From the NCBI GenBank assembly GCA_046597065.1, contig JBKJLI010000003.1, forward strand, positions 72,219-136,218: a stretch of 64,000 nt of DNA, given 5' to 3'. Source of the stretch: Candidatus Saccharimonadia bacterium. Lineage in GTDB: Bacteria > Patescibacteriota > Saccharimonadia > UBA4664 > SCTI01. Made by a program: the position numbers and the translations under genes. Below are positions 28,774 through 50,040 of this stretch, in pieces. Below the pieces are notes generated by a model. It was not told the DNA's origin. It did not search any database and worked only from the letters and a program-made list of their open reading frames with translations. The stretch's first letter is position 1, and every line of letters starts with the position of its first letter.

Positions 28774-28863
28774 GGAGAGGTGGCCGAGTGGCTGAAGGCG
28801 CACGCTTGGAAAGCGTGTATGCGGGCAACCGTATCGTGGGTTCGAATCCCACTCTCTCCGCCA
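28774..28863 (+). tRNA. tRNA-Ser (anticodon GGA); the island described next starts immediately 3' of it
   Basis: GGAGAGGTGGCCGAGTGGCTGAAGGCG CACGC TTGGAAA GCGTG plus a long variable arm plus GTGGGTTCGAATCCCAC TCTCTCC G CCA. Confidence 0.9.
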
Positions 28864-29006
28864 GTTATTATTTTCTTTTTCGACCCGTCCCCCTAACCCT
28901 TATATAAGGTGGAAGGGGCGGGATTTTTGAACCAAAAATAAGCCCTCAAAATCATCAAGTTCGAATCATTCCCATTCGCATGGGGAGGGGATTCGAACTG
29001 GCCTAG

Positions 29007-30344: not shown

Positions 30345-30373
30345 AGTACCGCCACGGGGTACTAAGTCTAGTC

Positions 30374-31915: not shown

Positions 31916-31927
31916 CTGGTGGACTCC

Positions 31928-33496: not shown

Positions 33497-33881
33497 TTTG
33501 CCCCAACCCGGCCAAGCGCAAAGCCTCTTGGACGACCGCTTCTTGCTCTGGAGTTAACGTTTGATCTTCAACCTTAAGCCGTCCATCAATCTGGACTCTG
33601 GTGGCATAGGTCGGGTGATGGTGCTTCAACCAGAAAATTATGCCAGTCATGTTGCCGTCTCGGATTGCAGCCATCAGCTGGCTCTCAGCCATGTCATTAA
33701 CCAGTGAAGCTCCCTCGCTGAGTGCAAGATCGGCTGCCTCGGCAAACTCTGCATCATCTTTATGCCAACGGTAGTAGGAAGCCCGGCCGAGACCGGTCTT
33801 CTCGCAAGCTAGCTGTACAATCGGCGTTTTGCGTAATTGGTCAATCAACAGCGCTTTATTCCGAGTGGTTTTATCCGACAT
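33459..33881 (-). CDS. Terminase small-subunit-like HTH protein
   Basis: 140 aa. N-terminal HTH (LRKTPIVQLACEKTGLGRASYYRWHKDD). Located immediately upstream (in transcription order) of the TerL-like genes. Confidence 0.5.
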   Translation of the reverse strand: MSDKTTRNKALLIDQLRKTPIVQLACEKTGLGRASYYRWHKDDAEFAEAADLALSEGASLVNDMAESQLMAAIRDGNMTGIIFWLKHHHPTYATRVQIDGRLKVEDQTLTPEQEAVVQEALRLAGLGQIEPITTEEQVHE

Positions 33882-34629
33882 GGCTCACCTCCAGCAATTT
33901 GGCAGTACCACCAGTCAGCTTCTCCCAGCGGTCAACGACGACTTGGCAATACGCTGGATCAAGCTCAATTGCCAGGCATTTACGTTTGGTTTGCTCACAG
34001 GCTAACAAGGTTGAGCCGGAACCAACGAACGGATCATAAATATAGTCGCCAACTCGGCTGGAATTAAGGACAAGATTTCGGAGCAGGCCAACTGGCTTCA
34101 TGGTCGGATGGAGCTTACTGCGGCTTGGTTTTGGATAGACCAACAGGCTTTTATCTTTGGCTTTGACGAATTCATGCGTTCCAAACCAGCCGTAGGCGAT
34201 AAGTTCGTGTTGGGGTAAGTAGTCCATGCGTCCAACCACAGCATGGGTCTTCACCCAGATCAGTAATTGGGTAAAGCGACAGCCCGCATCCTGCATGCCC
34301 TCCCGCAAAGCGAAGAGCATTTTGTCCGAGTTGAAGATATAGACAGCGTTCTTTGGAGCAAGGTACGGTTTGGCGGTTGCCAGCCAATCTTTGGTGAAGC
34401 ACCGGTATTCATCATCGCTTTGGTAATGGTCGCCGGTAATTTCACCACTCGATCCCAGCTTTTGTGAGAAGCCAGCCTTACTGTCGGTGTAGGCCACACC
34501 ATAGGGCGGGTCGCAGAGGATTAATTTGATCTGATCGTTGCCAACTAGTCGCCTTACCAGTTCTGGGTCTTTGGCATCGCCACAGGCTAAGCGATGGTCG
34601 CCGAGCTGGATGATCTGTTCCGGCTTCAT
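33871..34629 (-). CDS. DNA N6-adenine/N4-cytosine methyltransferase (DPPY family)
   Basis: Motif IV LILCDPPYGV and SAM-binding motif I near the C-terminus (FVGSGST). No adjacent restriction endonuclease. Confidence 0.8.
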   Translation of the reverse strand: MKPEQIIQLGDHRLACGDAKDPELVRRLVGNDQIKLILCDPPYGVAYTDSKAGFSQKLGSSGEITGDHYQSDDEYRCFTKDWLATAKPYLAPKNAVYIFNSDKMLFALREGMQDAGCRFTQLLIWVKTHAVVGRMDYLPQHELIAYGWFGTHEFVKAKDKSLLVYPKPSRSKLHPTMKPVGLLRNLVLNSSRVGDYIYDPFVGSGSTLLACEQTKRKCLAIELDPAYCQVVVDRWEKLTGGTAKLLEVSHVG

Positions 34630-35897
34630 AGCATCACCGCCTTCTGGCCGGTTAGGGCTTCGTATCTAGCAATAATGACATCGCAGAAGATTGGCTCAGC
34701 TTCGGCGAGGAACGCCAGGCGCTTCAGCTGCTCACAGGCCACCATGGTCGAGCCGGAGCCAGCCGTGACGTCGAGTACGATATCGCCTGGCTTAGTACAA
34801 CGCCTGAGGGGCTTTTCGTGCAGGGTCGGCGGCTTCTGAGTCGGGTGCTCGTAATCCTGAGCCGAATCGCGCTTGGCCAGCCAGATATTGAAGAGATCTA
34901 GAATGTCGTCGAGACTACGGTTACCGACTGCCACATCCTTATTCAAGATCTCGGTGAGGTTTTTGGTCTTGGACAGGTATGGTTTGCCGCGAGTGCCATA
35001 AACGCACGGTTCGTACGCTTTATTGAAGGCGATTTGCGGGGTCATGTTGAAATTGTTCTTAATCCAGAGGCAAACCCGCTTCGGAGCCAGACCAATCTCA
35101 ACATATAAACTTTGGAGCATGCCAATATAAGATTCGTCGCAGTAGCAAAAGACATGGCAGTCCGGCTTGGCAACTGCCATGCCGTTCACTAGAAGTGACT
35201 GGAGAAAGGCACTGTAGTCGGGATCGGACTTGTGGTCGTTGGTCGAGCCACCATACTTGCCGTTGGTACTGATGCCTTTGCTGTAATCTAGCGAAATATT
35301 GAACGGTGGGTCGAAGTAGAGCGCACTGACAAGGTCGCTTCCGACTAAGTGGTGGATTACAGCCGGATCGGTGGCGTCGCCGCAGATTAGCCGGTGTGAA
35401 CCGAGCTGGAACAAATCACCTGACTTAGTCTGTGGTGTCTTGATCTCCCGAATGGCTTTATCTACATCGAAGTCATCTTCCTCGGTTGCCAGTGCTTCAT
35501 CCCAAATCGCTGAGAGGTCGCCATCGTCGAAACCGACATCCAGCAGGAGACCCATGTCGAACTCTTTTAATAACTCCAGGTCCCACTCGCCTGTATTGGC
35601 GTTGAGACGAAGATTTAACTCTTTCTCGCGCTCTATATTTGGGATATTCACATAAACTACTGGGACATCGGTATAGCCCAGATCTTGCGCGACCTTCAGT
35701 CGGAAGTGTCCACCGATGACCACATTCTTTCGGTCAGACGCACCGTTCACAATGATGGGGTCGATTAGACCGAAGCGCTTGATGCTAGCAGTTAGATCAC
35801 CCGTCGCCTTATTACTCCAGCGCCTGGGGTTATATGGGGCTGGGTTAAGGTTAGTGGTGGGTACCTGAACTATTTGAATGTCGGTTGCTTGCTTCAT
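34626..35897 (-). CDS. ParB-like nuclease domain fused to a DNA methyltransferase
   Basis: N-terminal ParB/Srx motif (GGHFRLKVAQDLG). C-terminal MTase motifs (ALYFDPPFN; VTAGSGST). Confidence 0.8.
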   Translation of the reverse strand: MKQATDIQIVQVPTTNLNPAPYNPRRWSNKATGDLTASIKRFGLIDPIIVNGASDRKNVVIGGHFRLKVAQDLGYTDVPVVYVNIPNIEREKELNLRLNANTGEWDLELLKEFDMGLLLDVGFDDGDLSAIWDEALATEEDDFDVDKAIREIKTPQTKSGDLFQLGSHRLICGDATDPAVIHHLVGSDLVSALYFDPPFNISLDYSKGISTNGKYGGSTNDHKSDPDYSAFLQSLLVNGMAVAKPDCHVFCYCDESYIGMLQSLYVEIGLAPKRVCLWIKNNFNMTPQIAFNKAYEPCVYGTRGKPYLSKTKNLTEILNKDVAVGNRSLDDILDLFNIWLAKRDSAQDYEHPTQKPPTLHEKPLRRCTKPGDIVLDVTAGSGSTMVACEQLKRLAFLAEAEPIFCDVIIARYEALTGQKAVML

Positions 35898-35970
35898 AAC
35901 CTGATTTTCGGTTATGAGAAGGGAGAATAGTACCTGAATTGTTCAAGATAAGTTCTGGAAAAGTTCCGTA

Positions 35971-36621
35971 CTAGAAACTTCTAACGTATTTCAGCTGATA
36001 GCCTTCGCCCCAGCGACGAGTAACTTCTATCTCCAGATCGTCTTTCCTGAGCGCCCGTTTAAGTTCAGACATCAGATTAGGAATGCCCTTTACTGGGTCA
36101 AAGTTGCCGAGCTTCGCTTTGATCGTTTCATTACTCACATAATGCTCTGGAAACTCAAGCAGCATGACTAGTAGCTTGCCATGCTTAGAGGTGTGATAAA
36201 GATTCTGAAGGCGCCGTCCTTGATATTCAAACCGGCCGTCGATCAGGACTACGAACCCAAAATTAGGAGGTGCTGGGCGCTCAATCACTGTCGCCGCTGT
36301 GGGTGCTGCTGCAACCAGTGCTCCTTGAATCGGGAATATGTTAAGAAGTGGTTGAATCTCAATGATCAGGGGTGAGATCTTGGGAGTGATCTCCGATACC
36401 ACGGCCATTGTTCGACGAAGGTTATCGAAAATGCCGTTGGGAATTCGGATTGCCTCCACCATTCGCCTGTGCGTTTCGGCAATTTGCTCTTGCATCTCAG
36501 CCATTTGACGCACGAACCCCAAGTTGATTTGGGGCATAACAAGTGTACCCAAGTCGTGGCCGATGTTATCAAGGTCTAGAATCATTTCTTCTCCAGAACA
36601 TCTTTTACCAGAGAGAACCAT
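35971..36621 (-). CDS. Hypothetical protein with a C-terminal OmpR/PhoB-type winged-helix DNA-binding domain (no receiver domain)
   Basis: C-terminus ...ALRKDDLEIEVTRRWGEGYQLKY resembles the Trans_reg_C recognition wing. The N-terminal 120 aa are unassigned. Confidence 0.4.
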   Translation of the reverse strand: MVLSGKRCSGEEMILDLDNIGHDLGTLVMPQINLGFVRQMAEMQEQIAETHRRMVEAIRIPNGIFDNLRRTMAVVSEITPKISPLIIEIQPLLNIFPIQGALVAAAPTAATVIERPAPPNFGFVVLIDGRFEYQGRRLQNLYHTSKHGKLLVMLLEFPEHYVSNETIKAKLGNFDPVKGIPNLMSELKRALRKDDLEIEVTRRWGEGYQLKYVRSF

Positions 36622-37502
36622 TTCGTCGTATGGATCAGTCGATCGTTCACCAACTTCTTGGATAGCAGTTCCTGTTTCGTCAGCTTCGAAAGATCCTCCC
36701 AGCTAGTGGCATCTAGTACGTAGCTAGCGTTACCATAGCGGATACTCTCAAGTACCGTGATGCCTTTTTCTGGGAAAACGTAGGCAACGTAGCCGGTAAA
36801 ACCACCCGTACCGTAGGCAATAGTTGTTGGCTCAAACCCGATGATCCGGTCTTGCCGCAGGATTTCCACCGGGCGAATACGCTTTGATTTAGATAGGATG
36901 TCTTCCAGCTCTTTGGTGAGCTCGTCGATGGTCACCTTTTTACCCGGCGGCAGTAGGTGCCAGTTCAGCCGTCGAATTTCTACGGGCTCAAAGGCTTCGT
37001 CGTAAACCTCAACATGACCAAAGACTTCCAGGAAGATGTTGATAGCTGTGAGCAGTGTCTCTGGGTTGGCGGGATCGTACACCAATCGGTCAGCAGGCGT
37101 TATGAACTGATGCCCTTGCTTCTTTACGACCGTGAGTTCTATGCCCATTGCTGCCACTACCTCACGCGGGTAGCGCTGGTAAGGCACATCGACTAAGGAC
37201 GTTACGGTTACCGTCTCTTTGCCGCGCCACTCTTGGTGTGTCCATTCCTGGGTTCGGTAACGGGTTTCTTTGGGCTGATCACGTTGAATAATTTCTCGAC
37301 CCCAGGCGTTGAATCTGGTGACCGAGCCAAGGGGTTTTGGTAGTATCGTATCTCCCGGTGCTGGACTTGGACCAAAGCCAGCATTTTGAGCCGCTCGCGC
37401 ATTTGAAGCCACTTCCACCGCTAGCAAGACCTCCTTCCCCTCTAGCGAGGTGGGAAGGTGGGCTGAGAGTGAACGGATTCGCTTATTGTCAATGCTAAGC
37501 AT
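36582..37502 (-). CDS. Hypothetical protein (306 aa)
   Basis: Long ORF between the HNH and wHTH genes on the same strand. No recognisable motif. Confidence 0.4.
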   Translation of the reverse strand: MLSIDNKRIRSLSAHLPTSLEGKEVLLAVEVASNARAAQNAGFGPSPAPGDTILPKPLGSVTRFNAWGREIIQRDQPKETRYRTQEWTHQEWRGKETVTVTSLVDVPYQRYPREVVAAMGIELTVVKKQGHQFITPADRLVYDPANPETLLTAINIFLEVFGHVEVYDEAFEPVEIRRLNWHLLPPGKKVTIDELTKELEDILSKSKRIRPVEILRQDRIIGFEPTTIAYGTGGFTGYVAYVFPEKGITVLESIRYGNASYVLDATSWEDLSKLTKQELLSKKLVNDRLIHTTKWFSLVKDVLEKK

Positions 37503-37503
37503 G

Positions 37504-37872
37504 CTATCGGCTCGCTACGACTGCCGCATTTGGCAGTACGCCCACAGCGTCGCTTTTGCGCCGGTTGTTTTGCCACTGCAATGCCTGCAGGTTGCTAAGG
37601 TTATCGCTCCCACCCTTGGCGGCTGGGTAGACATGATCAATCTCCCAGCCGTTGCCCATCGGGGTCGTGTTACCATAACTAGCCCACTTGATCAGTGCGC
37701 CGTACATGTCCATACGCATATCACTTGGGTCGTATCCCGCCACAGCCTGGGCTTTAACCCAAACTGCGGCTCTTGTTTGTATAGAGAAATCATTTCCGGA
37801 TCGGTCGGTGCCGTGTCGTCGGGTTTGCATTCTTGCACCCTCCCTTAACTTAATTGTCAGTCCCGACCTCAC
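37504..37872 (-). CDS. HNH endonuclease
   Basis: GNGWEIDHVYPAAKGGSDNLSNLQALQWQNNRRK: a HNH core (DH...N...N) in a Cys-less variant. Confidence 0.65.
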   Translation of the reverse strand: MRSGLTIKLREGARMQTRRHGTDRSGNDFSIQTRAAVWVKAQAVAGYDPSDMRMDMYGALIKWASYGNTTPMGNGWEIDHVYPAAKGGSDNLSNLQALQWQNNRRKSDAVGVLPNAAVVASR

Positions 37873-37993
37873 CTTGCCGCGGCTGTTACTTAAGATTTTA
37901 AATCGCTCAAGCTGGACTTGTCAACAGTCATTGATATTATTGAATAGTGTTGAGCTATTGAAATAACATAAGCGGTTTGATAGGATTGGACTA

Positions 37994-38659
37994 ATGCATC
38001 CCACACAACAGAAGCTACTTAAACTAGCTGGTGAACGCGACCTCGGTAAGATGAAGTTGCTTGAGATGGGTCGTCTCGTGGGCGTCGATCACCCCCAAGT
38101 TGTTAAATACCACCTTGCCCAACTCCAGAAGAGAGGGCTAATTAACTTGGATCGTGCCGGTGGCACCGTAAAACGCATAGAGCATCAGCTCTTAGGCGGC
38201 TCGGATCTAGTGGCTATCCCGATTTATGGTTCAGCAAATGCTGGTCCTCAAACTCTTTACGCCGATGATCGCCTCGAGGGATACCTCAAGGTCTCCAGCG
38301 GCGTGCTCGGCACCAGGCGCAATCTAGAATCGCTACTTGCGCTCCATGTCGTTGGTGATTCCATGGATCGAGCTCATGTTGGCCCTGATCGTGAACCAAT
38401 TGATGACGGCGACTATGTAATCGTGGACAGGAAGCAGGTTGATGCCAATGATGGCGACTATGTGGTCTCGATCATTGATGGTATGGCCAATATCAAGAAA
38501 TTTCGGCAACAGCCCGATAACATCTATCTGATATCTGAATCCAATCGAGATTTGCCACCAATCGTTCTCCACAAAGATGATAGCCTCGATCTGGTTCTAG
38601 CTGGAAAAGTGGTTCAGGTTATAAAGCCGCCCAAGATATCTAAGCCTACAGCCCCTTAA
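37994..38659 (+). CDS. LexA/CI-like repressor (N-terminal HTH plus S24 peptidase autocleavage domain)
   Basis: S24 Ser motif VVGDSM and Lys motif ANIKKF. N-terminal wHTH. Confidence 0.75.
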   Translation: MHPTQQKLLKLAGERDLGKMKLLEMGRLVGVDHPQVVKYHLAQLQKRGLINLDRAGGTVKRIEHQLLGGSDLVAIPIYGSANAGPQTLYADDRLEGYLKVSSGVLGTRRNLESLLALHVVGDSMDRAHVGPDREPIDDGDYVIVDRKQVDANDGDYVVSIIDGMANIKKFRQQPDNIYLISESNRDLPPIVLHKDDSLDLVLAGKVVQVIKPPKISKPTAP

Positions 38660-38873
38660 AGAAGTCCTCGACCTTAACGCCCATCCCCTTGGCCAGTCGA
38701 TAAATTGTCGTAACGGTTGGTCGGCGAATCCCTGTCTCAATGTTTGCAATGGCGACTCTATCTAGCCCGCTTTTGTCTGCAAGCTGTTCTTGTGTCATGC
38801 CTTGCTCGCGGCGCAATTGAGCGAGGCGTTTGGCCACTTTCTCCAAAAATGCCTTTTCGGCTTTTGATTCCAT
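38646..38873 (-). CDS. XRE-family HTH regulator (Cro-like)
   Basis: LAQLRREQGMTQEQLADKSGLDRVAIANIETGIRRPTVTTIYRLAKGMGV. Convergent and overlapping with the CI-like gene. Confidence 0.8.
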   Translation of the reverse strand: MESKAEKAFLEKVAKRLAQLRREQGMTQEQLADKSGLDRVAIANIETGIRRPTVTTIYRLAKGMGVKVEDFFKGL

Positions 38874-38978
38874 AGCTTAAGCATAGGAAGAATAGCCTTG
38901 TCAAGACATAATCATTTGATTACAATTCAAGCTTATGCTATAACTTGTGTAAACATTTGATTAAGGAGATTTACACCT

Positions 38979-39545
38979 ATGAGCGACCAGGCGAAAAAGA
39001 AAAATTGGTTTGCACGGCACAAGATCATGTCCGTAATACTTGGACTAATAGTAATCGGGGTCATTACCTCGGCTGCCGGTGGCAACAAGGGCAGTACCAA
39101 CACTCCATCTGGTAGTACCAAACAGGCCTCTAGTGGAGCTAAGACCGTCGGCATTGGTCAGGCGGCTCAAGATGGTAAGTTTGAATTCACGGTCAACAGC
39201 TTCAAATGTGGCGACACCACAGTTGGAACAAACCAATATCTGACCAAGACTGCTCAAGGTGAGTACTGCCTCATGAACCTCACGGTTAAGAACATCGGCA
39301 ACCAGGCTCAACTGTTCGATGCTTCGAATGAATATGTCTACGACAGCAGTAACAATAAACTATCTGCCGACAGTACCGCTTCAACCTACGCTAACCCTGA
39401 TGGAAGCACGTTCCTCAACCAGATCAACCCAGGCAACTCCGTCACTGGTACTGTCGCCTTCGATGTAGCAAAAGGTGCAACCATTGCGACTGCTGAACTT
39501 CATGATTCCGCATTCTCCAGCGGTGTCAAAGTTACGCTTAAGTAG
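38979..39545 (+). CDS. DUF4352-like membrane-anchored protein
   Basis: N-terminal TM anchor, Ser/Thr/Gly linker, then a beta-rich domain (GKFEFTVNSFKCGD...GEYCLMNLTVKNIGN). Confidence 0.5.
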   Translation: MSDQAKKKNWFARHKIMSVILGLIVIGVITSAAGGNKGSTNTPSGSTKQASSGAKTVGIGQAAQDGKFEFTVNSFKCGDTTVGTNQYLTKTAQGEYCLMNLTVKNIGNQAQLFDASNEYVYDSSNNKLSADSTASTYANPDGSTFLNQINPGNSVTGTVAFDVAKGATIATAELHDSAFSSGVKVTLK

Positions 39546-39727
39546 CCACGGCAGATCCCCCTTATGCTTTCTATCCATATCGTTTTAGCTTAAAATACTC
39601 GGGGCGGAACTCAGGTGCCGCCTTTGGTTTATTACGTTCGTTGACATATCCAGGCCGGATTATTGCTTTAAGGGTGATTAGCGGTAATCCGGTCTGGAAC
39701 AGACCCTTACAAAAGGAGGGATGCCAA

Positions 39728-40636
39728 GTGCATCTTGCCACTACACTGGCTGGCGTCGAGCTTGAGCATCCGCTCATGAATGCTGCTGGCACCTGCAAGA
39801 CCCTGGAGGACGTCGAGAAGCTCGCTAGGTCAAGCATTTCGGCCATTGTGGTCGGTTCCATCACCCTCGCATCCCGGATGGGGAACGAGGGGAATGTTTT
39901 CTGGCCTGGTCCGATCTACTCGCAGAACTCTCTCGGGATGCCCAATCGTGGGCGTGACTACTACCAGGACACTCTCCCGCGAATGGTCGAGGTAGCTCAT
40001 GGTGCTGGCAAGGCTCTGATCCTCAACGTCGCTGGCTTTAGCCATATCGAATATGGCGAGCTGGCAGCGCTGGCGCACGAAGCCGGGGTTGACATCATCG
40101 AGCTCAACCTCGGCTGTCCGAATGTGTGGGACGACGGTCAGCAGAAAAAGATCGCCTCGTTCGACCCATTCGGTATCGCAGCCATCATGGCTGAGGTCGA
40201 GCGCAAGGTTCCTGACGATCGACCGGTTGGTGTGAAGCTCTCGCCCTATTCCGATCCCGGGATGCTGGCGGAAGTTGCGGATACCATCAAGGATCTCCCG
40301 ATCCGGTACGTCGCCACCTGCAACACTTTCCCGAACTCGCTGGTTCTCGACGAGAATGGCAAGTCGGTGATCGACGTTGGACTGGCTGGGCTGAGTGGCC
40401 CTGCCATGAAGCCCGTCGGTCTCGGTCAGGTTAAGCAGTTGCGACAGCTTCTGCCGGACTCGGTCGAGCTCGTGGGCGTCGGCGGTATCACAAAAGGCCG
40501 CGACGTCTGGGAGTACCAGCAGGTCGGAGCTTCAGCCGTCCAGGTGGCTACGGCCTACTGGAACAGCAACGAAAACCCCGGCGTCTTCGGGGACATCCTG
40601 TCGGATTACATCGACCAGTTCCCCGAGGAGGGCTGA
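39728..40636 (+). CDS. pyrD: Dihydroorotate dehydrogenase (class 1-like), GC-rich
   Basis: GTG start 7 nt after AAAGGAGGG. ELNLGCPN motif, a GVGGI phosphate-binding loop, and an N-terminal NAAG. About 62% GC. Confidence 0.8.
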   Translation: MHLATTLAGVELEHPLMNAAGTCKTLEDVEKLARSSISAIVVGSITLASRMGNEGNVFWPGPIYSQNSLGMPNRGRDYYQDTLPRMVEVAHGAGKALILNVAGFSHIEYGELAALAHEAGVDIIELNLGCPNVWDDGQQKKIASFDPFGIAAIMAEVERKVPDDRPVGVKLSPYSDPGMLAEVADTIKDLPIRYVATCNTFPNSLVLDENGKSVIDVGLAGLSGPAMKPVGLGQVKQLRQLLPDSVELVGVGGITKGRDVWEYQQVGASAVQVATAYWNSNENPGVFGDILSDYIDQFPEEG

Positions 40637-40637
40637 C

Positions 40638-41381
40638 ATGAGCACCATCACCGATCCCATCGAGCGGATAATCTGGAGTGCGGACGTGGCTGACGAGGAA
40701 GCCTTGATGGCTGCACTCGACCGAATGCCAGATCTCCGAGTCATCAAGATCGACCGCCTGTTCGTGACCGAAGTCGGTCTGGGCGTCATCGATCGGCTGG
40801 CCGAGCGTGGGCTGCTGGTCTTCGACGACGCCAAGATCATCGAGATTCCCTCGAAGGTTGTCGGCATCGCCAAGAAGCACCTGGTACACCGACCGTTCAT
40901 GCTCAACTGCATGGCGGGTGCTCAGTCCAGTGGCCTCCTGACGCACGAAGACCCGGAGAAGGTCGACGGGCTCAAGCGGTTCGCCGATGTCTGCCTCGAA
41001 GCTGGCACCAAGCCCTGTGCAGTCACGGTGCTGACCAGCAAGACAGCAGACGTCGTCGGTAGCGAGTTCAACGGCCGAGACAGCATGGAGCAAGTGCTCT
41101 ACTACGTCGAGGCGTTGCTCGAGTGCGGCTTCACTGACGTGGTCTGCTCCCCAAAGGAGCTTCCCGCAATTCGGGCTGAGAGTCGCTTTGACGGCCTCGA
41201 CCTGAACACACCGGGAATTCGCCCGGCGGGTTCTGACGCTGGAGACCAAGCCAGGGCCGACACTCCCGAAGGGGCACTGGCGGCTGGAGCAACTCGGCTC
41301 GTCATCGGCCGACCCATCACGACCGGTGATCCGGCCGAGAACCTCAAGAACATCGTCGCCAGCATCACCGCTGAGGCCTGA
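40638..41381 (+). CDS. pyrF: Orotidine 5'-phosphate decarboxylase
   Basis: DDAKIIEIP (DxKxxDIP) catalytic motif and the C-terminal LVIGRPI. GC-rich. Confidence 0.75.
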   Translation: MSTITDPIERIIWSADVADEEALMAALDRMPDLRVIKIDRLFVTEVGLGVIDRLAERGLLVFDDAKIIEIPSKVVGIAKKHLVHRPFMLNCMAGAQSSGLLTHEDPEKVDGLKRFADVCLEAGTKPCAVTVLTSKTADVVGSEFNGRDSMEQVLYYVEALLECGFTDVVCSPKELPAIRAESRFDGLDLNTPGIRPAGSDAGDQARADTPEGALAAGATRLVIGRPITTGDPAENLKNIVASITAEA

Positions 41382-41395
41382 CCAAGGAGATCAAG

Positions 41396-42034
41396 TTGGA
41401 CGTCCTGAAAGAACTCGACCAAGCAGGTGCTGTTCTGCTCGATCAGCACTTCGTCTACAAGAGCAAGAAGCATGGGTCTGGCTACATCAACATGGACCCG
41501 CTTTTTCCCGACGTGGGGCTGGTCTCGTCGCTGTGTGCGTTGCTGGTACGACCGTTCGAGGGCGACTTCGACACGGTCGCTAGCCCGGCAACCGGTGGCG
41601 TGGTGCTTGCGTTCGCCAGTGCCATGCAGACGCCTGGTACACGGCCGGCCGCGGTTTGGGCAGACAAGGACGGGGATGAGTTCCGCTTCGAGTGAGCAGG
41701 CTTCACCGACCACCTCAAGGGCAAGCGTGTCCTGGTGGTCGAGGATCTGCTCACGACAGGCGGTTCGGTGCTCAAGGTCTGCCGAGAAGCGGAGAAGCAC
41801 GGTGCCGAGATCATCGGTGTCAGCGTCATCTGCAACCGAGGTGGCGTTACCGCCGAACAGCTCGGCGTCCCGCGACTGGAAGCACTCGCCAGCGTCAGCT
41901 TTGCGGCTGTCGATCCCGGCGAGTGTGAGCTGTGCAAGAACAACGTTCCCATCGTCGAGGACATCGGTCATGGCGAAAGCTACAAGGCCGAGCACCCCGA
42001 CTACGAGGGTGGCTACATCAAGCTGCTCTCCTGA
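41396..42034 (+). pseudogene. pyrE: Orotate phosphoribosyltransferase-like gene interrupted by a single in-frame TGA at 41693-41695
   Basis: The ORFs 41396-41695 and 41735-42034 are in the same frame and separated only by a TGA (...DEFRFE*AGFTDHLKGKRVLVVEDLLTTGGS...). The PRTase motif VLVVEDLLTTGGS lies downstream of the stop. Confidence 0.6.
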
Positions 42035-42323
42035 ACACCTAGCAGTAGGTGGGCAGCCAAGTTCTGGAGCTAATCCAGGGCTTGGCGCTCAACCCAAGAT
42101 TTTAAGCCATTAAAGTTTTAGGCTGAGTCAATAAGTAGAGCTTGACAGCGTAAGCGTTTAGTAGTATAATACCCAAGTATTTTGACAATATGCTATTACT
42201 CCCCTTGAGAGCGGCGCTCTGCAACCAAGTGTTTGGTATCAGTGTGCCGCTCTCAGCCCCCGCTGAGACCACGATGCGCATACCGCGCAAGCGTGGACGA
42301 ACACCGGCACAGGAGGATTTGTC

Positions 42324-43136
42324 ATGGGAACCAAGGCAACCCGCGAGGAGCTCGGTGACCTCGGCGTCGTGTACGCCAGGTTGTTCGAGTTCGTCAAGAA
42401 CGGCAAGAGGCCAGCAGGGCTCGTCATTGCAGGGATGCAGCGACTGGCCGATGGTCAGTTCCCGGAGAACACGCGGTTCGACCGCTACAACCACCTGCTG
42501 CTGTCCCTGGACGACCAGTTGGAGCGCCTACGGCGTTACAACACGAAGTACTGGGACAGCCGCCTGACCGATGAGCAGCTCGCTGCCGTCGACACGTCCG
42601 GTGATCTCACCCAGCGGGTCGACGACCTCACAGCCTTTCACGTCCAGTTCGACTCCCTCGAGGAGACGGTCGAGATGTGGTGGCGCGTGTACGTCGGCGA
42701 GCAGCCCAAGCAGTGGCGCTGGGACGAGCTCAAGCTCGACTCGGAGCACCTGCGGCTTCTCACTTCCAACGTCCGCCAGTACGAACCCGGTATCCATCGG
42801 ATCCGGATCGACCTGGTGGCTCACTGGGAGCCCGAGGACGGGCGCACGCTCGAGGAAGTCCGTGAGGGCGCCAAGGGCACCAGCGAGATTCTCGCTCAGC
42901 TCGAGGTCCTCTCGGCCTACGGTCTGCACTCGGAGCTTTTCCGGGAGCAGGACGGCGAGAACCTGCCGTATTCGGACATGCCCGGTACCGACGTGTCGGT
43001 TCCCGGCCGCTCCGGGCCGTGCGCTCTGTGCGTGGGCTGGTCCCCGTTCGCCCTCGAGGCCGGGCTGAACGCCGGCTGGGTCAGCCGCCGCAGCCACAAG
43101 TGGGCGGCGCCGGTGCTCAGGGAGTTGCAGAGCTAG
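42324..43136 (+). CDS. DGR target protein; its C-terminal 41 codons are the variable repeat
   Basis: 270 aa, GC-rich. The C-terminus (...CALCVGWSPFALEAGLNAGWVSRRSHKWAAPVLRELQS) lies within VR. No signal peptide. Confidence 0.75.
   Translation: MGTKATREELGDLGVVYARLFEFVKNGKRPAGLVIAGMQRLADGQFPENTRFDRYNHLLLSLDDQLERLRRYNTKYWDSRLTDEQLAAVDTSGDLTQRVDDLTAFHVQFDSLEETVEMWWRVYVGEQPKQWRWDELKLDSEHLRLLTSNVRQYEPGIHRIRIDLVAHWEPEDGRTLEEVREGAKGTSEILAQLEVLSAYGLHSELFREQDGENLPYSDMPGTDVSVPGRSGPCALCVGWSPFALEAGLNAGWVSRRSHKWAAPVLRELQS
42999..43123 (+). repeat. DGR variable repeat (VR), 125 bp
   Basis: Identical to TR (43501-43625) except at 21 positions, all of which are adenines in TR (A to G, C or T in VR). Followed by GC-rich hairpins (CTAGGACTTCGGTCCCTAG). 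Confidence 0.9.
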
Positions 43137-43500
43137 GACTTCGGTCCCTAGGGGCTTGGAGGGCCTTGGACTTCGTTCCTTGGCCCTCCGCCCCGCAGGG
43201 GCGCAAATTCAATTTTTTACGCAAGTAGATACATTGGAGAAGCGCCCCTTCTTCATGCCCAAAATTTGCTATAATCATATCTGGAAAGTAGGCTAATGAA
43301 TCCGACTTTACGGAGTCTGGGTCGCCGAAATCTCTCGTAGTCGCAGAAACTACCAGAGTTTTGGTCACTAGGGTGGCTGAAAGTGTGTAGGCGATTAACC
43401 GAGCACTCCGTGCTCCTTGCTTGAGACAGTTAAGTCTCGCATTAAATACAGGGTTTGGATACGTCCGGGCCCAGTGGATCACAAGGCAAGTAGCGCAATT

Positions 43501-43625
43501 GTTCCCGGCAACTCCAAGCCGTACGCTCTGTACGTGAACTGGAACCCGTTCAACCTCAAGGCCAAGCTGAACGCCAACTGGGTCAGCAACCGCAACAACA
43601 AGTGGGCGGCGCCGGTGCTCAGGGA
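43501..43625 (+). repeat. DGR template repeat (TR), 125 bp, rich in AAC codons
   Basis: Same frame as VR. Codons AAC/AAG sit at every diversified position. The 85-aa ORF 43417-43674 in the track is this repeat, not a gene. Confidence 0.9.
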
Positions 43626-43668
43626 CTGCTCGAATAACAGGGAGGGTGAGATACCACTCCCTGTTTTG

Positions 43669-44058
43669 TTATAGCGATTTTAGCCAGCCACCCAACATAC
43701 GGCCAATTTCATGGAGTTGAGACTCAAGAGCCAGATAGGTCTTGTTGTCGATGCATTTGCAGTCTTTGCTGAGTCGAACCATTAGCCGCAGTAGATCGAG
43801 TTTAGTTGAGGCTACGCTTAACCGCTCCTTTTTGGTTTCCGGTTTAGCAGTACTTGCCGCAGTAACAACCGCTTCCATCAGATCAAGCAGTTCGGTCTGC
43901 ATGGCTGAGCCTAACGAGTAGCGTTGGGATTTTGGAAACTTTAATAGCAATTCATGGAGAGCTTTATACAGCTGATACAGCGAATGGACAATAGGGATAT
44001 CAATCAAACCCCCACTCAACTTAGCTTGGACTTTACTACTGGCATTGGAACTAGTCAT
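43669..44058 (-). CDS. avd: DGR accessory variability determinant (Avd-like four-helix-bundle protein)
   Basis: 129 aa. ...LYKALHELLLKFPKSQRYSLGSAMQTELLDLMEAVVTAA matches the Avd/23S-IVS four-helix-bundle family core. AAGGAGG Shine-Dalgarno. Confidence 0.7.
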   Translation of the reverse strand: MTSSNASSKVQAKLSGGLIDIPIVHSLYQLYKALHELLLKFPKSQRYSLGSAMQTELLDLMEAVVTAASTAKPETKKERLSVASTKLDLLRLMVRLSKDCKCIDNKTYLALESQLHEIGRMLGGWLKSL

Positions 44059-45045
44059 GAAACCTCCTTATTATCGTCATTTGATTACATTTGTTCTATT
44101 ACAAGCCTTTTTCAGGCATGGAGCAAGTTTAGCCGGGGGAAGCGCTCAAAACTGGATGTCTTATGTTATGAGCGATCGCTAGAGGAGAACATCTTCGAAC
44201 TGCAGGAGCAGCTGGTAGGAGGTAAATTTAAACATGGCCCATATGTGCCATTTACCATTTGCGATCCAAAAACGCGCCGAATCCACAAGGCTACCGTCCA
44301 AGACCGCTTAGTTCATCAGGCACTGGTTAGTGCCATTGAGCCACTATTCGAACGCCAGTTTATTTATGACAGCTATTCCTGCCGCAAGAATAAGGGTACC
44401 CACGCAGCAGTAAGACGATTGCGAACCTTCTTACGACAAGCTAGTCATAACGACACCCAGACGGTGTACGCCCTCAAATGTGATGTGAAGCAGTTCTTTG
44501 CCTCGGTCGATCACGAGATTCTGGTGAATTTGCTGAAGCAGAAGGTTGATGATCCAGATACACTCAAGCTATTACTTTTGATAATTGATAGCCTATCCAC
44601 TTGCCCTGGCAAAGGCATCCCACTTGGTAACCTCACCAGCCAGCTTTTTGCTAATATTTACTTGCATGAGTTCGATTGGTTTGTGAAGAATCGAATACGT
44701 GAGAAGCATTATCTGCGCTATTGCGATGATTTTATTATTCTCAGCACTAACCGGCAGCATTTACTGGAATTAATTGAGCCAATTACTCGGTTTCTGAGCG
44801 ATCGGCTAGCGCTCACAGTCCACCCAAATAAGATCACAATTCGCAGCTGGGGTCAGGGTATCGACTTCTTGGGCTATGTTCTCAAGCCCCAATGTATCGT
44901 TCTGCGCCACAAGACGAAGCTACGAACGCTCAAACGGGTGGATAGCAACAATCTGACGTCTTACGTTGGGTTGTGCTCTCACGCCGACGCATATGAGCTG
45001 AGCCAGCTTATTACAATAAAGGCATTAACCAAGCAGGAGGATTAG
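44026..45045 (+). CDS. DGR reverse transcriptase
   Basis: Aligns with BPP-1 bRT from the N-terminal LFQAWSKFSRGKR. RT motifs include IPLGNLTSQLFANIYL (the DGR-specific [IL]GxxxSQ) and YCDDFIIL (YxDD). The start is uncertain: TTG at 44026 is proposed, the ORF-track ATG at 43954 would overlap avd. Confidence 0.85.
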   Translation: MDFTTGIGTSHETSLLSSFDYICSITSLFQAWSKFSRGKRSKLDVLCYERSLEENIFELQEQLVGGKFKHGPYVPFTICDPKTRRIHKATVQDRLVHQALVSAIEPLFERQFIYDSYSCRKNKGTHAAVRRLRTFLRQASHNDTQTVYALKCDVKQFFASVDHEILVNLLKQKVDDPDTLKLLLLIIDSLSTCPGKGIPLGNLTSQLFANIYLHEFDWFVKNRIREKHYLRYCDDFIILSTNRQHLLELIEPITRFLSDRLALTVHPNKITIRSWGQGIDFLGYVLKPQCIVLRHKTKLRTLKRVDSNNLTSYVGLCSHADAYELSQLITIKALTKQED

Positions 45046-45047
45046 AT

Positions 45048-46109
45048 ATGGATCGTAAAAGATATGAGGATCTCTATGACGAAATTACAGTTGAGGGCTG
45101 TCGCTCTGGCGAACGAATAGTTAATGGCACTTTCAGCGAGATGGAACCGAAAGTGCCACCGTCAGAAATTGAACAACGTCGTCCGGGTTGGTACTTGTTC
45201 TATAGCCAGCTCTATTTTGGCCTCGTTGAGTCCCGGGCAGCTGCGCGAGCAGTAAAGCGTGATCAGACTATTAGCGAGTGGGTGGCTCGGGACGAGGAGA
45301 AAGACCGTGTCCTAGCTAACGCACACTTTGAGGGTGGTACGTACTGCCGAAGCTGCGGTAAAGACATGCGGGTTATTAGCAAGGACTATATGCGCCGCGA
45401 GGGTCGCAAGGAAGATGACATCCTGCTGATGTTTGAGTGCGATAATTGCAATAAGCGACTGGCCTTATGGCAAGACGGCACCGAGTGGGAGGGTGCCAAG
45501 ACCTTATGCGAGAAATGCGGTGAATCAATGGATCATACCGGCAAAACTGATAACAAGGTTGTCACAACTACCTACAAATGCCCCAAATGCGGACATAGTT
45601 ACCAAGACAGCTTTGAGCTTGGTGGAAGTAAAGAAGAAGAGCCACCCGATCCTAACTACGAGCTGGATAAAAAGCGGTTTGTCTTCGATAGCGACATGAT
45701 GTTTAAGTACGAGCAGAAACGCCGTCATCTCGAGCGGCTAATGAAGCTCGAGGCTACCGTCGCTGATCAAGCTGTGCATGCTGATATCTATGAGGCCATC
45801 AAAGATATCAAGAAGCTCAAAATTGCCCAGCTGACTGAGATATTGAAGCCAGGATTAGAAAAAGCTGGCTACACTGAGTTTATGCTAGGTCAGCCGGAAC
45901 TAGGTCGCGAGGTGGCCGTGGGATTTAGCTGCTTAGATGCCAAGGCCGAACGAGAAGAGTACAACAGCAAGAAGGATCTGCAAAAGCTGATCTCTAAAAC
46001 TCTGGATGATACAAACTGGCGGTTAATGAGTGAGGGTGTGAGTTACCGGGTTGGCTACTTGACCGGCAGCTCCGTGCTTACGAAAGCGAAGATGAACTTC
46101 GGAAGCTAA
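45048..46109 (+). CDS. Multi-zinc-ribbon protein translationally coupled to the DGR RT (4 CxxC pairs)
   Basis: ATG 2 nt after the RT stop. CRSCG, CDNCN, CEKCG, CPKCG. Acidic, coiled-coil C-terminal half. No known family recognised. Confidence 0.5.
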   Translation: MDRKRYEDLYDEITVEGCRSGERIVNGTFSEMEPKVPPSEIEQRRPGWYLFYSQLYFGLVESRAAARAVKRDQTISEWVARDEEKDRVLANAHFEGGTYCRSCGKDMRVISKDYMRREGRKEDDILLMFECDNCNKRLALWQDGTEWEGAKTLCEKCGESMDHTGKTDNKVVTTTYKCPKCGHSYQDSFELGGSKEEEPPDPNYELDKKRFVFDSDMMFKYEQKRRHLERLMKLEATVADQAVHADIYEAIKDIKKLKIAQLTEILKPGLEKAGYTEFMLGQPELGREVAVGFSCLDAKAEREEYNSKKDLQKLISKTLDDTNWRLMSEGVSYRVGYLTGSSVLTKAKMNFGS

Positions 46110-46213
46110 TCGAGCAAAAAGCCAAGCATGGCACATTACCGCCACCAACGGCAAAGCCAGTTGAGGCGCTGCCGGATCATCCACCGACTACGCTTAGTCC
46201 AAGGGAGCGCAAT

Positions 46214-46492
46214 ATGCGCGAATCAGCCTTGGTTTATTTTCATAAAATGACGCTCGACTCAGTACCAGCCGAGATTACCCTAAAGAGTGGTATGAAGAAG
46301 TCGACGAGCATTCCTTTTCTGCGAATGGAGATGCATCCGCTACTCCGAGTGATCATACCAATGCGCGATAATGACGATTCGGTACCCGAGTTTGCTAGAA
46401 CGTTTGATTTTAAGTCGGGCGGTGACAAAGATATCCCGCAGATTAAAAAAGATAGCCTAGGGCGAGAAATAAGACGTCTCGATAAGGAGTAG
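46214..46492 (+). CDS. Hypothetical protein
   Basis: 92-aa ORF. No motif. Confidence 0.3.
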   Translation: MRESALVYFHKMTLDSVPAEITLKSGMKKSTSIPFLRMEMHPLLRVIIPMRDNDDSVPEFARTFDFKSGGDKDIPQIKKDSLGREIRRLDKE

Positions 46493-46494
46493 TT

Positions 46495-46719
46495 TTAGCT
46501 TCGTTTTTCAATCCGACCGTCTTGAAGATGGCTAGGAGCTTTTTCGAACAGCCTGATTAACCCCTGAGCTGCCCGCATTGCCACTTCATCATTTGGAAAT
46601 TCTAGGCCACGCATTTCCTTGGTAATACGCTTAAACTCTGCGAGATCCTGCTTACTAACTTGTGTCATGATAGTGTTCCCCAAGGCACCATTAACTACTC
46701 TCCCTATCTGATAATGCAA
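46495..46719 (-). CDS. Hypothetical protein
   Basis: 74-aa ORF. No motif. Confidence 0.3.
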   Translation of the reverse strand: MHYQIGRVVNGALGNTIMTQVSKQDLAEFKRITKEMRGLEFPNDEVAMRAAQGLIRLFEKAPSHLQDGRIEKRS

Positions 46720-46936
46720 GCTTAAGCGGATTAAAAGGTCGGAACGCTAGCCTATGCGTTGTAGTAGCGATTCAGTCAAGCCAAGGCTACGAGGGCTCCG
46801 AAATGAGACACAAAACAATCCCTTTTTATAGTGTCTTATTTGTCTCATTTCCTCCTTAGGCACTATAATTCTTGAGACAGTCGGAAAGTTCCTGACCCGG
46901 CTGCTCCGCCAGTAATAATTAAAGTATAATTAGGCA

Positions 46937-47719
46937 ATGAGTAGCCCAAAGACCATTGTTATCACCGGTGCATCAGGCGGCATCGGTTTAGAGTTAGCAC
47001 GAATTGCAGCCGAGCAAGGATTCGCCCTCGTGCTGGTGGCTCGCGGCCATGACAGTTTACAAATGATTGCCCGTGAGCTGCGCGAGGCCTTCAACGTTGA
47101 GGTAGAGGTAATTGAGCTGGACCTGTCAAAGGCCGGTGCTGCTAAAAAACTTGCGGTTGCCATTGCCAAAGAGGGCATCGAGCCCTACGTTCTGATTAAT
47201 AATGCTGGCTTTGGCTTGGGTGGAGCTTTTGCTAGACAAGATCCGGTTCGAATAAGCGCCATGATGCAGCTAAATATGGTGGCTTTAACCGAGCTAACCC
47301 GGATACTTTTACCAGGCATGATAGAGCGTAGTGAGGGTAGGGTATTAAATGTAGCCTCCACTGCCGCCTTTTTACCGGGACCATACATGGCAGTTTATTA
47401 CGCTACCAAATCTTATGTATTATCGTTTAGTCAGGCCCTAAGCGATGAACTTAAGGGCAGCGGGGTGACTGCCACAGCCTTGTGCCCGCCACCTACCAAA
47501 ACTCATTTTGCAAAGGAGGCCGACCTAGAGGGAACCCGGCTGTTTAGCGGTAAACTAATGTCGGCGCGCGAGGTTGCCCAGGCAGGGTTTAAGGGTATGC
47601 TATCTGGAAAGCGAGTGGTGTTACCAGGGGCCGCCGCCAAGCGTATTTTATGGCTGTCGCGGATATTACCGACTAGATTGGCATTGCCATTGGTGCGTCG
47701 TATACAGGGGGGTAAATAG
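46937..47719 (+). CDS. SDR-family short-chain dehydrogenase/reductase
   Basis: TGASGGIG Rossmann motif, NNAG, and the catalytic YxxxK (YYATKSY). Confidence 0.85.
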   Translation: MSSPKTIVITGASGGIGLELARIAAEQGFALVLVARGHDSLQMIARELREAFNVEVEVIELDLSKAGAAKKLAVAIAKEGIEPYVLINNAGFGLGGAFARQDPVRISAMMQLNMVALTELTRILLPGMIERSEGRVLNVASTAAFLPGPYMAVYYATKSYVLSFSQALSDELKGSGVTATALCPPPTKTHFAKEADLEGTRLFSGKLMSAREVAQAGFKGMLSGKRVVLPGAAAKRILWLSRILPTRLALPLVRRIQGGK

Positions 47720-48090
47720 TGAGCACAATCGTCCCTCTAGAGCATCACAAATATGATCTATTAATGAAGAATAAAAATCCCATGGCACTTAGGCTTAATG
47801 ATTCACATCATCAGAATATTCAAGTTGGAGACGTTGTTGAATACAGTGGTCATAACACGATTATGGATCGCCAACGCTTTAAGGTGGTAGGGCGCTTTGA
47901 TCATGATACGGTGCGCTCGGCGGTATCAGCGATTGAGCATTCTAGTTTATCTACCCTCGATAAAATAAAAATGAGTGAAGGGTTTTTAGATCATCATGGT
48001 ACGGCTGCCCAGTCACATTCAGTGGTAGCTTTGCAGCTTGCACCTCACCCTGGTGGTCCGTCGCTTCGATCGGTACCCACAAGGCTGTAA
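47719..48090 (+). CDS. ASCH/PUA-like domain protein (YqfB-like)
   Basis: Pattern resembling the YqfB ASCH fold (RLNDSHHQNIQVGDVVEY...FKVVGRFDHDTV). The true start may be an internal Met. Confidence 0.35.
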   Translation: MSTIVPLEHHKYDLLMKNKNPMALRLNDSHHQNIQVGDVVEYSGHNTIMDRQRFKVVGRFDHDTVRSAVSAIEHSSLSTLDKIKMSEGFLDHHGTAAQSHSVVALQLAPHPGGPSLRSVPTRL

Positions 48091-49990: not shown

Positions 49991-50040
49991 TATCAACGAT
50001 TTTCGCTCTTTATTCGGCCAACAGGTGGTACAATACCGTT

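Follow-up and report, generated by a model that had tools for sequence, protein, structure and literature searches.

The 64,000-nucleotide stretch analyzed here, from contig JBKJLI010000003.1 of a Candidatus Saccharimonadia bacterium (hereafter, the window), carries three adjacent GC-rich genes of late pyrimidine biosynthesis: a pyrD-like gene for a dihydroorotate dehydrogenase (DHOD), a pyrF-like gene for an orotidine 5'-monophosphate (OMP) decarboxylase (OMPdc), and a pyrE-like gene for a phosphoribosyltransferase (PRTase) that is interrupted by a stop codon. We interpret the region 39598–42127, with a probability of about 0.68, as a self-contained, horizontally mobile operon cassette that consists of a leader, the D, F and E genes, and a trailer, and that constitutes cargo of an island adjacent to a tRNA-Ser gene. 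According to this interpretation, the cassette would stem from a GC-rich gene pool common to high-GC Actinobacteria (Mycobacteriales and, farther away, Frankia, Patulibacter and Acidimicrobiales) and to Patescibacteria/Saccharibacteria, and would be carried by a prophage-like island of ~18–21 kb inserted right after tRNA-Ser(GGA). The DHOD would convert dihydroorotate to orotate, the PRTase would form OMP from orotate and phosphoribosyl pyrophosphate (PRPP), and OMPdc would convert OMP to uridine monophosphate (UMP). An organism otherwise without nucleotide synthesis would in this way use late intermediates taken from its host. In the window, the pyrD-like and pyrF-like genes are intact and the second step is broken, so that only the first and third steps would be encoded intact. 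We infer the substrates, the physiological role, and the direction and date of transfer of the cassette from sequence comparisons.

Saccharimonadia have been reported to be unable to synthesize nucleotides de novo, and Saccharibacteria and other bacteria belonging to the candidate phyla radiation (CPR) are described as incapable of making nucleotides and dependent on host cells (PMC12592800). A literature search for DHOD or orotate phosphoribosyltransferase (OPRT) yielded no specific results for CPR or Saccharibacteria, and no earlier report of such a cassette in CPR bacteria was found.

Composition and architecture of the cassette

Bases 39728–42034 have a GC content of 60.8%, compared to 49.8% for the rest of the window, and to 50.4% and 48.3% for the island DNA on either side of the block. 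A first-pass annotation of the window had described a block of 62% GC in a 48% backbone; the contrast exists, with measured values of about 61% against 50%. A 1-kb composition scan displays one strong GC peak at 40–43 kb (0.60–0.62, with a window mean near 0.50). In a 200-nt scan, GC climbs from ~39.7 kb, dips to 0.45–0.48 at 42.0–42.3 kb, and reaches 0.61–0.72 again until 43.2 kb. One edge of the step coincides with the first start codon (GTG at 39728; the ribosome-binding site (RBS), AAGGAGG, is at 39713), and its other edge with the last stop codon (42034). The excess is found mostly at third codon positions (GC3), with values of 0.73, 0.75 and 0.75 for the three pyr genes against 0.52±0.07 for the backbone (41 open reading frames, ORFs). 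All three genes thus deviate by z = 3.0–3.4 in the comparison with backbone genes that had been proposed as a check, and the GC-rich block is confirmed at the codon level. Its end does not lie at ~42100, as annotated: beyond a 289-nt spacer at 50% GC, a second GC-rich stretch corresponds to a fourth gene (42324–43136; 65.8% GC, GC3 0.875), which is the target of a diversity-generating retroelement (DGR).

An abrupt step of about 11 points in GC content might be taken as a sign of an assembly chimera or of actinobacterial contamination. We give this explanation next to no credence, as the step falls on start and stop codons, the DGR target is tied to its local template repeat, and at least four low-GC assemblies, independent of one another, conserve the low-GC leader and trailer along with the cassette.

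The three pyr genes are located on one strand, separated by spacers of 1 nt and 14 nt. Their annotated order, strand and families stand, and all three identities hold at the family level in Pfam, NCBIfam and best PDB matches; the third gene, however, is not intact.

The DHOD contains a full-length TIM-barrel domain (PF01180, DHO_dh; 9.4e-45, residues 3–279). Its best NCBIfam model is PRK02506, the class-1A "dihydroorotate oxidase", with 187.7 bits compared to an equivalog cut-off of 301 that is not reached, and the same applies to PRK07259 (156 bits against 269). The best PDB match is DHODA from Lactococcus lactis (7e-37). The enzyme retains the class-1 catalytic Cys, as the segment NLGCPNV aligns with NLSCPNV of L. 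lactis, as well as the substrate Asn residues; C130, P131 and N132 are invariant in an alignment of 18 members of the DHOD family. Class 2 DHODs have Ser where class 1 has the catalytic Cys; the electron acceptor of class 1A enzymes is fumarate or O2. The DHOD of the window would oxidize dihydroorotate, probably with one of these two acceptors. NCBI lists an identical protein of 302 aa (P0001) on a contig of 414,741 bp.

OMPdc matches the OMPdecase domain (PF00215) at 2e-24 and 87.3 bits, compared to a gathering score of 27. It reaches neither the cut-off of PRK00230 (112.7 bits against 193) nor that of TIGR01740 (77.4 against 92.3), and E. coli PyrF (1eix) is its best PDB match. The residues D16, K37, D64 and K66 are kept, together with the PGIR, DQxR and GR motifs. 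The PRTase matches PF00156 (Pribosyltran) at 1e-11, carries the PRPP-binding loop of type I PRTases, VLVVEDLLTTGGS, and aligns with positions 1–183 of the 187 of TIGR01367 (pyrE_Therm) with 104.1 bits, below the cut-off of 150.25. Its best relative of solved structure is the OPRT 4paw.

The pyrE-like gene contains an in-frame TGA at 41693–41695, reading …RFE*AGF…, and an ORF finder therefore yields two 99-codon ORFs. Codon 100 is Arg (CGA) in the intact 212-aa homolog of locus L002, compared to TGA in the window, which amounts to a single C→T change. PRTase homologs are nearly all ~210–230 aa long (range 191–246 among the best 120 listed). Reassignment of the stop codon was ruled out, since TGA is a genuine stop here and the residue encoded at this codon in the homologs is Arg, neither Gly nor Trp; TGA ends 11 of the 61 long ORFs of the window, and all three pyr genes. 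The interruption lies upstream of the PRPP loop. The predicted truncated product would lack that loop, and the orotate-to-OMP step is missing as sequenced. The three-step conversion of dihydroorotate to UMP that had been proposed is represented by families for all of its steps, but its OPRT step is broken, provided that the TGA is genuine.

Both halves of the interrupted gene show ratios of nonsynonymous to synonymous divergence (dN/dS) of 0.04–0.15 in comparisons with L088, L085 and L002. Since they are still under strong purifying selection, the lesion is either very recent or a consensus error. An unlikely explanation is that the operon is fully functional and that the TGA reflects a minority allele or an error of sequencing or consensus. 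The single change from CGA, the selection on both halves, the lack of any other lesion and the origin of the sequence from a metagenome-type assembly would agree with it, but the same gene has been lost independently at two other loci. The L085 locus has a variant, L084, in which an inversion cuts the PRTase to 105 aa (L084 3944–4340). In L001 (11915–12050), a deletion has removed F and most of E, leaving a ~45-nt remnant of the 3' end of E and the shared trailer, with a pyrC gene now following the DHOD gene. As judged from these alignments, the PRTase step has been damaged or lost three times independently (window, L084 and L001). The losses in L084, by inversion and truncation, and in L001, by deletion with a remnant, indicate that the step is dispensable and often lost, and the pyr module in the window is probably starting to decay, as in these two related copies.

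The low-GC flanks belong to the cassette as well. Similarity of the window to L084/L085, L088 and L001 continues for about 80 nt upstream, into the leader, and for about 90 nt downstream, into the trailer, and the leader can be aligned across the window, L085, L088, L001 and, partly, a copy from Mycobacteriales. The leader motif GTGTACCTT is able to pair with AAGTGCAT, which spans the GTG start codon, in five of the five aligned copies (window, L085, L088, L001 and L002), the one from Mycobacteriales among them, and the start-codon-sequestering helix predicted by RNAalifold is kept in all five. The hairpin ahead of the RBS, GGTCTGG…CAGACC, displays two compensatory changes. No Rfam family was found for the leader, apart from a chance match to a CRISPR direct repeat (E = 0.87), and PyrR-type attenuation was considered and found no support. 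The leader accompanies the cassette and may represent a cis-regulatory RNA; the five sequences, which show little covariation, suggest that it could act by sequestration of the start codon.

Relatives of the cassette and its island

A scan of one genome per species retrieved 80 loci (loci and genomes are designated here by L numbers). The closest one is a metagenome-assembled genome (MAG) of Mycobacteriales, with amino-acid identities of 79% for DHOD, 79% for F and 82% for E. It is the only non-CPR genome, and the only named one, found with the same D-F-E operon. At the nucleotide level, it is 77.5% identical to the window over 39724–42034, which is exactly the coding block, and the leader motifs are shared. 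The backbone of this MAG has 62–66% GC and its module 60%, and the actinobacterial link suggested by the first-pass annotation is thus borne out by the best relatives.

Loci with the D-F-E order are L002/L004, L085 and L088. The backbones of L084/L085, L088 and L001 have 48–50% GC and a small-genome gene content, and the module or its DHOD has ~57–62% GC; a module of 0.60 GC in the Mycobacteriales MAG (0.62 in the backbone) thus contrasts with Saccharibacteria-type contigs whose backbones have 0.48–0.53. Other combinations exist. L001 has a bona fide PyrC (TIGR00856; 369 bits, with a cut-off of 293) after its DHOD. The Saccharibacteria MAG L086 combines DHOD, a PyrC-like amidohydrolase (52% identical to the PyrC of L001), OMPdc and a PRT-like gene, and F-E pairs without D are present in L089 and L090.

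More distant DHODs (40–61% identity) occur in Frankia-group genera, Patulibacter/Solirubrobacterales and Acidimicrobiales, where the GC content of the gene equals that of the backbone (0.62–0.76). They also occur in many lineages of Patescibacteria, among them Saccharibacteria and Yanofsky-, Doudna-, Kerfeld-, Berkel-, Wildermuth- and Kaiserbacteria, where the DHOD gene usually exceeds its flanks in GC content, by 3–19 points in most loci. The DHODs of a Saccharibacteria MAG (L012) and a Yanofskybacteria MAG (L014) are sister tips on short branches, with ~0.60 GC in flanks of 0.47 GC, which points to a recent transfer between classes; in L014, a serine recombinase is located directly upstream of the DHOD gene and a reverse transcriptase (RT) about 8 kb downstream. 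A serine recombinase stands beside or near the DHOD gene in L001, L014 and L068. The sister tips and these recombinases indicate that the module is mobile within CPR. Six MAGs labeled "uncultured Gammaproteobacteria" (L042, L052, L061, L063, L066 and L067; most with 0.38–0.45 GC, L061 with 0.64) carry DHODs of the CPR/actinobacterial family, and their labels may be wrong.

The backbone of the window comprises housekeeping genes for ValRS, FemAB, a Mur ligase, GroES/EL, DnaG, RpoD, PolA, Fpg, HolA and TruB. The best named relatives of GroEL are from Candidatus Saccharimonadales (84%), in agreement with the reduced, epibiont-type host that had been proposed, and the backbone is, by these markers, that of Saccharibacteria. 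Synteny was examined with the Saccharibacteria genomes L098 (402 kb) and L100 (270 kb), whose GroEL proteins are 86–87% identical and which share the gene order from ValRS to RpoD. Nucleotide similarity to both stops at 28863, the 3' end of tRNA-Ser(GGA), and resumes at 50001, just before dnaG. The tRNA is present in both relatives, in which the interval between tRNA-Ser(GGA) and dnaG measures 1.4 and 2.5 kb compared to 21.1 kb in the window, and one gene of the L100 interval matches window positions 47719–48030. Since synteny breaks at the tRNA and resumes at dnaG, ~18–21 kb of the window represent a strain-specific insertion. The coordinates of the features are collected in Table 1. A 427-aa ORF (48594–49877; 0.56–0.60 GC) with weak ParB-like PHROG matches lies in the same interval, to the right of the gene conserved in L100.

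Table 1. Features of the cassette, the island and the neighboring retroelement (window coordinates).
Feature	Coordinates	Strand	Evidence and remarks
Conserved 5' leader	39598..39727	+	Terminator-like hairpin, GTGTACCTT motif, hairpin GGTCTGG…CAGACC, RBS AAGGAGG
pyrD-like gene, class-1A-like DHOD, 302 aa, GTG start	39728..40636	+	Pfam DHO_dh, NCBIfam PRK02506, L. lactis DHODA
pyrF-like gene, OMP-decarboxylase subfamily, 247 aa	40638..41381	+	Pfam OMPdecase, PRK00230, PDB 1eix
pyrE-like phosphoribosyltransferase gene, in-frame TGA at codon 100	41396..42034	+	Pfam Pribosyltran, TIGR01367, translation
Conserved 3' trailer	42035..42127	+	Hairpins CACCTAgcagTAGGTG and CTGGAGC…CCAG; aligns with L085 and L001
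tRNA-Ser(GGA), 3' end = left junction of insertion	28774..28863	+	ARAGORN, Rfam
Strain-specific prophage-like island	28864..47718		Right edge approximate, 46.7–50.0 kb
Large serine recombinase (integrase)	29007..30344	-	Pfam Resolvase, Recombinase and Zn_ribbon_recom; PHROG 95, E = 1e-57
Two tandem TerL paralogs (30374–31915, 31928–33496) and TerS-like gene (33459–33881)	30374..33881	-	Pfam Terminase_6C; PHROG 38, 1e-84 and 5e-80; TerS PHROG
DGR target gene, 270 aa	42324..43136	+	GC 0.658, GC3 0.875; variable repeat (VR) at 42999–43123
DGR template repeat (TR)	43501..43625	+	125 nt; 21 of 21 mismatches to VR at TR adenines
bAvd accessory protein of DGR	43669..44058	-	Pfam bAvd, 6e-18
DGR reverse transcriptase	43954..45045	+	Pfam RVT_1, 2e-24; GC 0.457

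The serine integrase lies 144 nt from tRNA-Ser(GGA). Besides the integrase, the terminase genes, the pyr module and the DGR, the island encodes two N6/N4 methyltransferases, of which one is a fusion with ParB, together with an HNH nuclease, a DUF4352 protein and a zinc-ribbon protein; it also carries an S24/LexA-like repressor and an XRE regulator. Searches with Pfam and PHROG recognized no capsid, portal or tail genes in it. The placement of the module inside a phage-like island, as annotated, is therefore supported by the strain-specific insertion with its integrase and terminases, in the form of something other than an intact prophage. No direct repeats of 12 nt or more that could serve as att sites were found flanking the island, including repeats of the tRNA 3' end; long att repeats are not expected for serine integrases. 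The two TerL paralogs (513 and 522 aa, both of PHROG 38) share a 300-nt repeat at 74% identity; duplication of TerL is uncommon among prophages. The island TerL is at most 26% identical to the terminases of Mu-like phages.

The presence of the integrase, the terminases and a pair of repressors in the same insertion, and of a serine recombinase near the DHOD gene in L001, L014 and L068, would also be compatible with a set of phage auxiliary metabolic genes that boosts nucleotide supply during infection. This explanation is very unlikely. The DHOD family was not found on IMG/VR viral contigs, and sequenced phages and plasmids yielded only distant, canonical DHODs of at most 36% identity. In addition, the island has no capsid, portal or tail genes, and the copies in L085, L086 and L090 sit among housekeeping genes.

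Age, direction of transfer and function

The neighbor-joining tree of DHOD, rooted on L. lactis DHODA and with 100 bootstraps, displays the topology [L065 Saccharibacteria, (L085, (L088, (Mycobacteriales MAG, (window, L001))))], with support values of 86/84/95/51/100. The sister clade is formed by Patulibacter, Acidimicrobiales and Frankia (72%), and the deep branches are CPR lineages with bootstraps under 35%; because of these low values, no claim is made on the ultimate origin of the DHOD family. In the case of PyrF and PyrE, identities among the copies of the window, L085 and L088 amount to 83–91%, and the Mycobacteriales copy stands outside at 77–81%. All three pyr genes show dN/dS values of 0.06–0.2 and are under purifying selection. 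Third-position changes, when polarized, lean from GC to AT for three copies (window, L088 and L090), and are balanced in L085. This test is only suggestive of amelioration, since the Mycobacteriales lineage shows a similar GC→AT bias with a GC-richer outgroup.

Several observations speak against the proposed interpretation of the cassette. Regarding age, copies of the module differ by a synonymous divergence (dS) of ≈0.8–1.5 and nevertheless keep a GC3 of 0.62–0.81. Regarding direction, the Mycobacteriales DHOD is nested among copies from low-GC backbones, with 84–95% bootstrap, contrary to a simple transfer from an actinobacterium to Saccharibacteria. The island may be composite, so that the module need not have come with the prophage genes, and the TGA of the PRTase gene could be an assembly or consensus error. 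Regarding chemistry, all three proteins score under their NCBIfam equivalog cut-offs. The FMN-contacting Lys43 (L. lactis numbering) is replaced by Gly in DHOD, and this G43 is invariant in the 18-member family. The catalytic motif of OMPdc is D64-A-K66-I-I-E69, with Glu for the last Asp of DxKxxD, as in most of its subfamily. Owing to these two substitutions, canonical activity is not assured. Actinobacteria that carry genes of the module presumably have the canonical pathway too (L089 is a 5.3-Mb contig), which hints at a role other than housekeeping.

The recent acquisition that had been read from composition is not supported, given that copies in low-GC backbones still have ~57–62% GC at dS≈0.8–1.5 and that other genes are GC-rich too. 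The persistence of GC-richness over dS≈1, together with the GC-rich Rpf-like gene and DGR targets described below, implies that high GC in these genomes is no clock and should not be read as recency of transfer. What is established is the foreign-looking composition and the sharing across phyla, and not the recency. An arrival after the split from L098/L100 is better supported by the synteny break than by composition, as the insertion has no counterpart in these relatives. The exchange of the module between Actinobacteria and Saccharibacteria is well supported. As for its direction, the DHOD tree favors either a transfer into the Mycobacteriales genome from a source of the Saccharibacteria type or actinobacterial donors absent from the sampling, whereas composition would favor the opposite path, from Actinobacteria to Saccharibacteria. 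Of the high-GC actinobacterial donor that had been proposed, the cross-phylum exchange is thus retained and the direction is not, since the DHOD tree nests the Mycobacteriales copy among those of low-GC backbones.

The same data can be accommodated by an old residence of the module in Patescibacteria/Saccharibacteria, in which it would have moved on integrative elements with an intrinsic and maintained high GC, the Mycobacteriales MAG having acquired it from an epibiont. We regard this scenario as possible, although the odds are against it. It is in line with the nested Mycobacteriales copy (bootstraps 86/84/95) and the CPR lineages on the deep branches, with the GC excess of DHOD over its flanks in nearly every CPR locus, persisting at dS 0.8–1.5, and with the balanced GC↔AT changes of L085. 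The GC-rich Rpf-like gene in the window and L098, the GC-rich DGR-target homologs in low-GC contigs, and the low-GC leader and trailer common to the low-GC copies fit it as well. By contrast, no mechanism is known that would keep GC3 at ~0.75 in a genome with a GC3 of 0.52, and the actinobacterial genes look native, with a GC content equal to that of their backbones. The third positions of the window, L088 and L090 copies lean from GC to AT, as expected for amelioration, and for PyrF and PyrE the Mycobacteriales copy falls outside the group of the window, L085 and L088. Moreover, the deep nodes have bootstraps under 35%, and a single actinobacterial genome is sampled in the subclade.

With respect to function, an exhaustive search places the OMPdc of the window in a discrete subfamily of 46 clusters (50% identity level) at E<1e-30, followed by a gap to the canonical PyrFs at about 35% identity. 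This subfamily carries DAKxxE(I/V)PSK where canonical PyrF has DLKxxDIPNT, and retains the other catalytic and phosphate-binding positions. The three proteins might accordingly be paralogous subfamilies that act on a non-canonical substrate, such as a modified orotate or a nucleotide analogue, or serve salvage or detoxification, with no UMP made. The scores under all three equivalog cut-offs, the Lys43→Gly replacement, the discreteness of the OMPdc subfamily with its altered motif, and the F-E pairs and lone D genes that appear as extra copies in large high-GC genomes lend themselves to this explanation, which we nonetheless consider doubtful. The best matches of each protein are consistently pyrimidine enzymes, and the Asn, Gln and Arg positions that bind the substrate are conserved. 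A bona fide PyrC accompanies DHOD in L001, as do PyrC-like genes in several other lineages, and the combinations encountered (D, D-C, D-C-F-PRT, D-F-E and F-E) all represent consecutive late pyrimidine steps. A late-pyrimidine cassette thus remains the preferred interpretation, and the divergent subfamilies to which its DHOD (Lys43→Gly) and OMPdc (DxKxxE) belong lend themselves to enzymological work.

Neighboring GC-rich genes and comparison with known systems

Directly downstream of the pyr module, a complete DGR occupies positions 42142–45045. Its target gene has no Pfam or PHROG match, and a perfect TTGACA-N17-TATAAT sequence is located upstream of it at 42142–42170. Homologs of the target (L092, L093, L095, L096 and L097) have 0.56–0.68 GC in contigs of 0.40–0.50 GC, beside a low-GC Avd and RT; one homolog is found in a contig of 0.65 GC (L091). 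Depletion of adenines by DGR mutagenesis was considered as the cause of the GC-rich target and rejected, in view of a positive AT skew over the gene and a GC excess along its entire length. After rpoD, a gene with an Rpf-type transglycosylase domain (53753–54289; PF06737, 9e-19; overlapping ORF 54172–54768) has ~0.60–0.63 GC. It is syntenic and equally GC-rich in L098 (21358–21653; 0.60 against 0.51), and is therefore a GC-rich, actinobacterial-flavored gene that is vertically inherited in the clade.

A bolder proposal, which we put forward tentatively and judge unlikely as it stands, is a two-way traffic of a self-regulated GC-rich cassette, with a conserved leader able to sequester the start codon, between Actinobacteria and Saccharibacteria/CPR as their epibionts. 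The cassette would belong, together with the DGR target and the Rpf-like transglycosylase, to a wider class of genes that keeps a host-like, high-GC codon usage in CPR genomes of low GC. If this were true, high GC may persist through continual re-import from, or recombination with, host DNA, or through an unrecognized selective constraint, and the recurrent loss of OPRT would mark a rapid cycle of gain and decay of host-derived metabolic genes. Actinobacteria are the phylum that supplies the known hosts of Saccharibacteria. A mobile UMP operon would be concrete evidence that the metabolic dependency of an epibiont can be patched by gene exchange. The intermediates that might cross from host to epibiont are dihydroorotate, carbamoyl-aspartate where PyrC is present, and orotate. 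The independent breakage or loss of the PRTase in three copies suggests that such metabolic patches are transient.

A comparison of the DHOD with L. lactis DHODA (PDB 1dor/1jqx; PRK02506) reveals a common Pfam domain, a length of ~300 aa, the absence of an N-terminal membrane domain, the catalytic Cys in N-L-x-C-P-N and the substrate Asn residues. The enzyme of the window is, however, only about 30–35% identical to DHODA and, with Gly in place of Lys43, has a Lys in an AAGTCK motif instead, which we take to resemble that of class 2 enzymes. OMPdc shares with E. coli PyrF (1eix; PRK00230, TIGR01740) a full-length OMPdecase domain, Asp16, Lys37, Asp64-x-Lys66, and the PGIR, DQxR and GR motifs, and differs from it in the Glu that replaces the second Asp of DxKxxD, in IPSK instead of IPNT, and in an insertion of about 10 residues. 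The PRTase has in common with the "Therm" type of PyrE (TIGR01367; PDB 4paw) the type I signature VLVVEDLLTTGGS and a near-full coverage of the model, but its gene is split by the TGA at codon 100 and its score stays under the cut-off. The DGR is organized like that of Bordetella phage BPP-1, with a target gene that ends in a 3' VR, a TR that differs at adenines only, bAvd and RT. By contrast with BPP-1-type systems, its target lacks a recognizable Pfam domain and has a GC content of 0.66, compared to 0.45 for its own Avd and RT.

The island is of a known kind, namely a tRNA-adjacent integrative island with prophage remnants. Cyanophages carry pyrE as an auxiliary gene of nucleotide metabolism, and the cassette shares with such auxiliary genes of phages and islands the presence of metabolic genes as cargo of an integrated mobile element. 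It differs from them in that it is on none of the viral contigs and sequenced phages examined, that it comprises three consecutive steps of a pathway with a conserved leader of its own, and that it is common to putative host and epibiont lineages across phyla.

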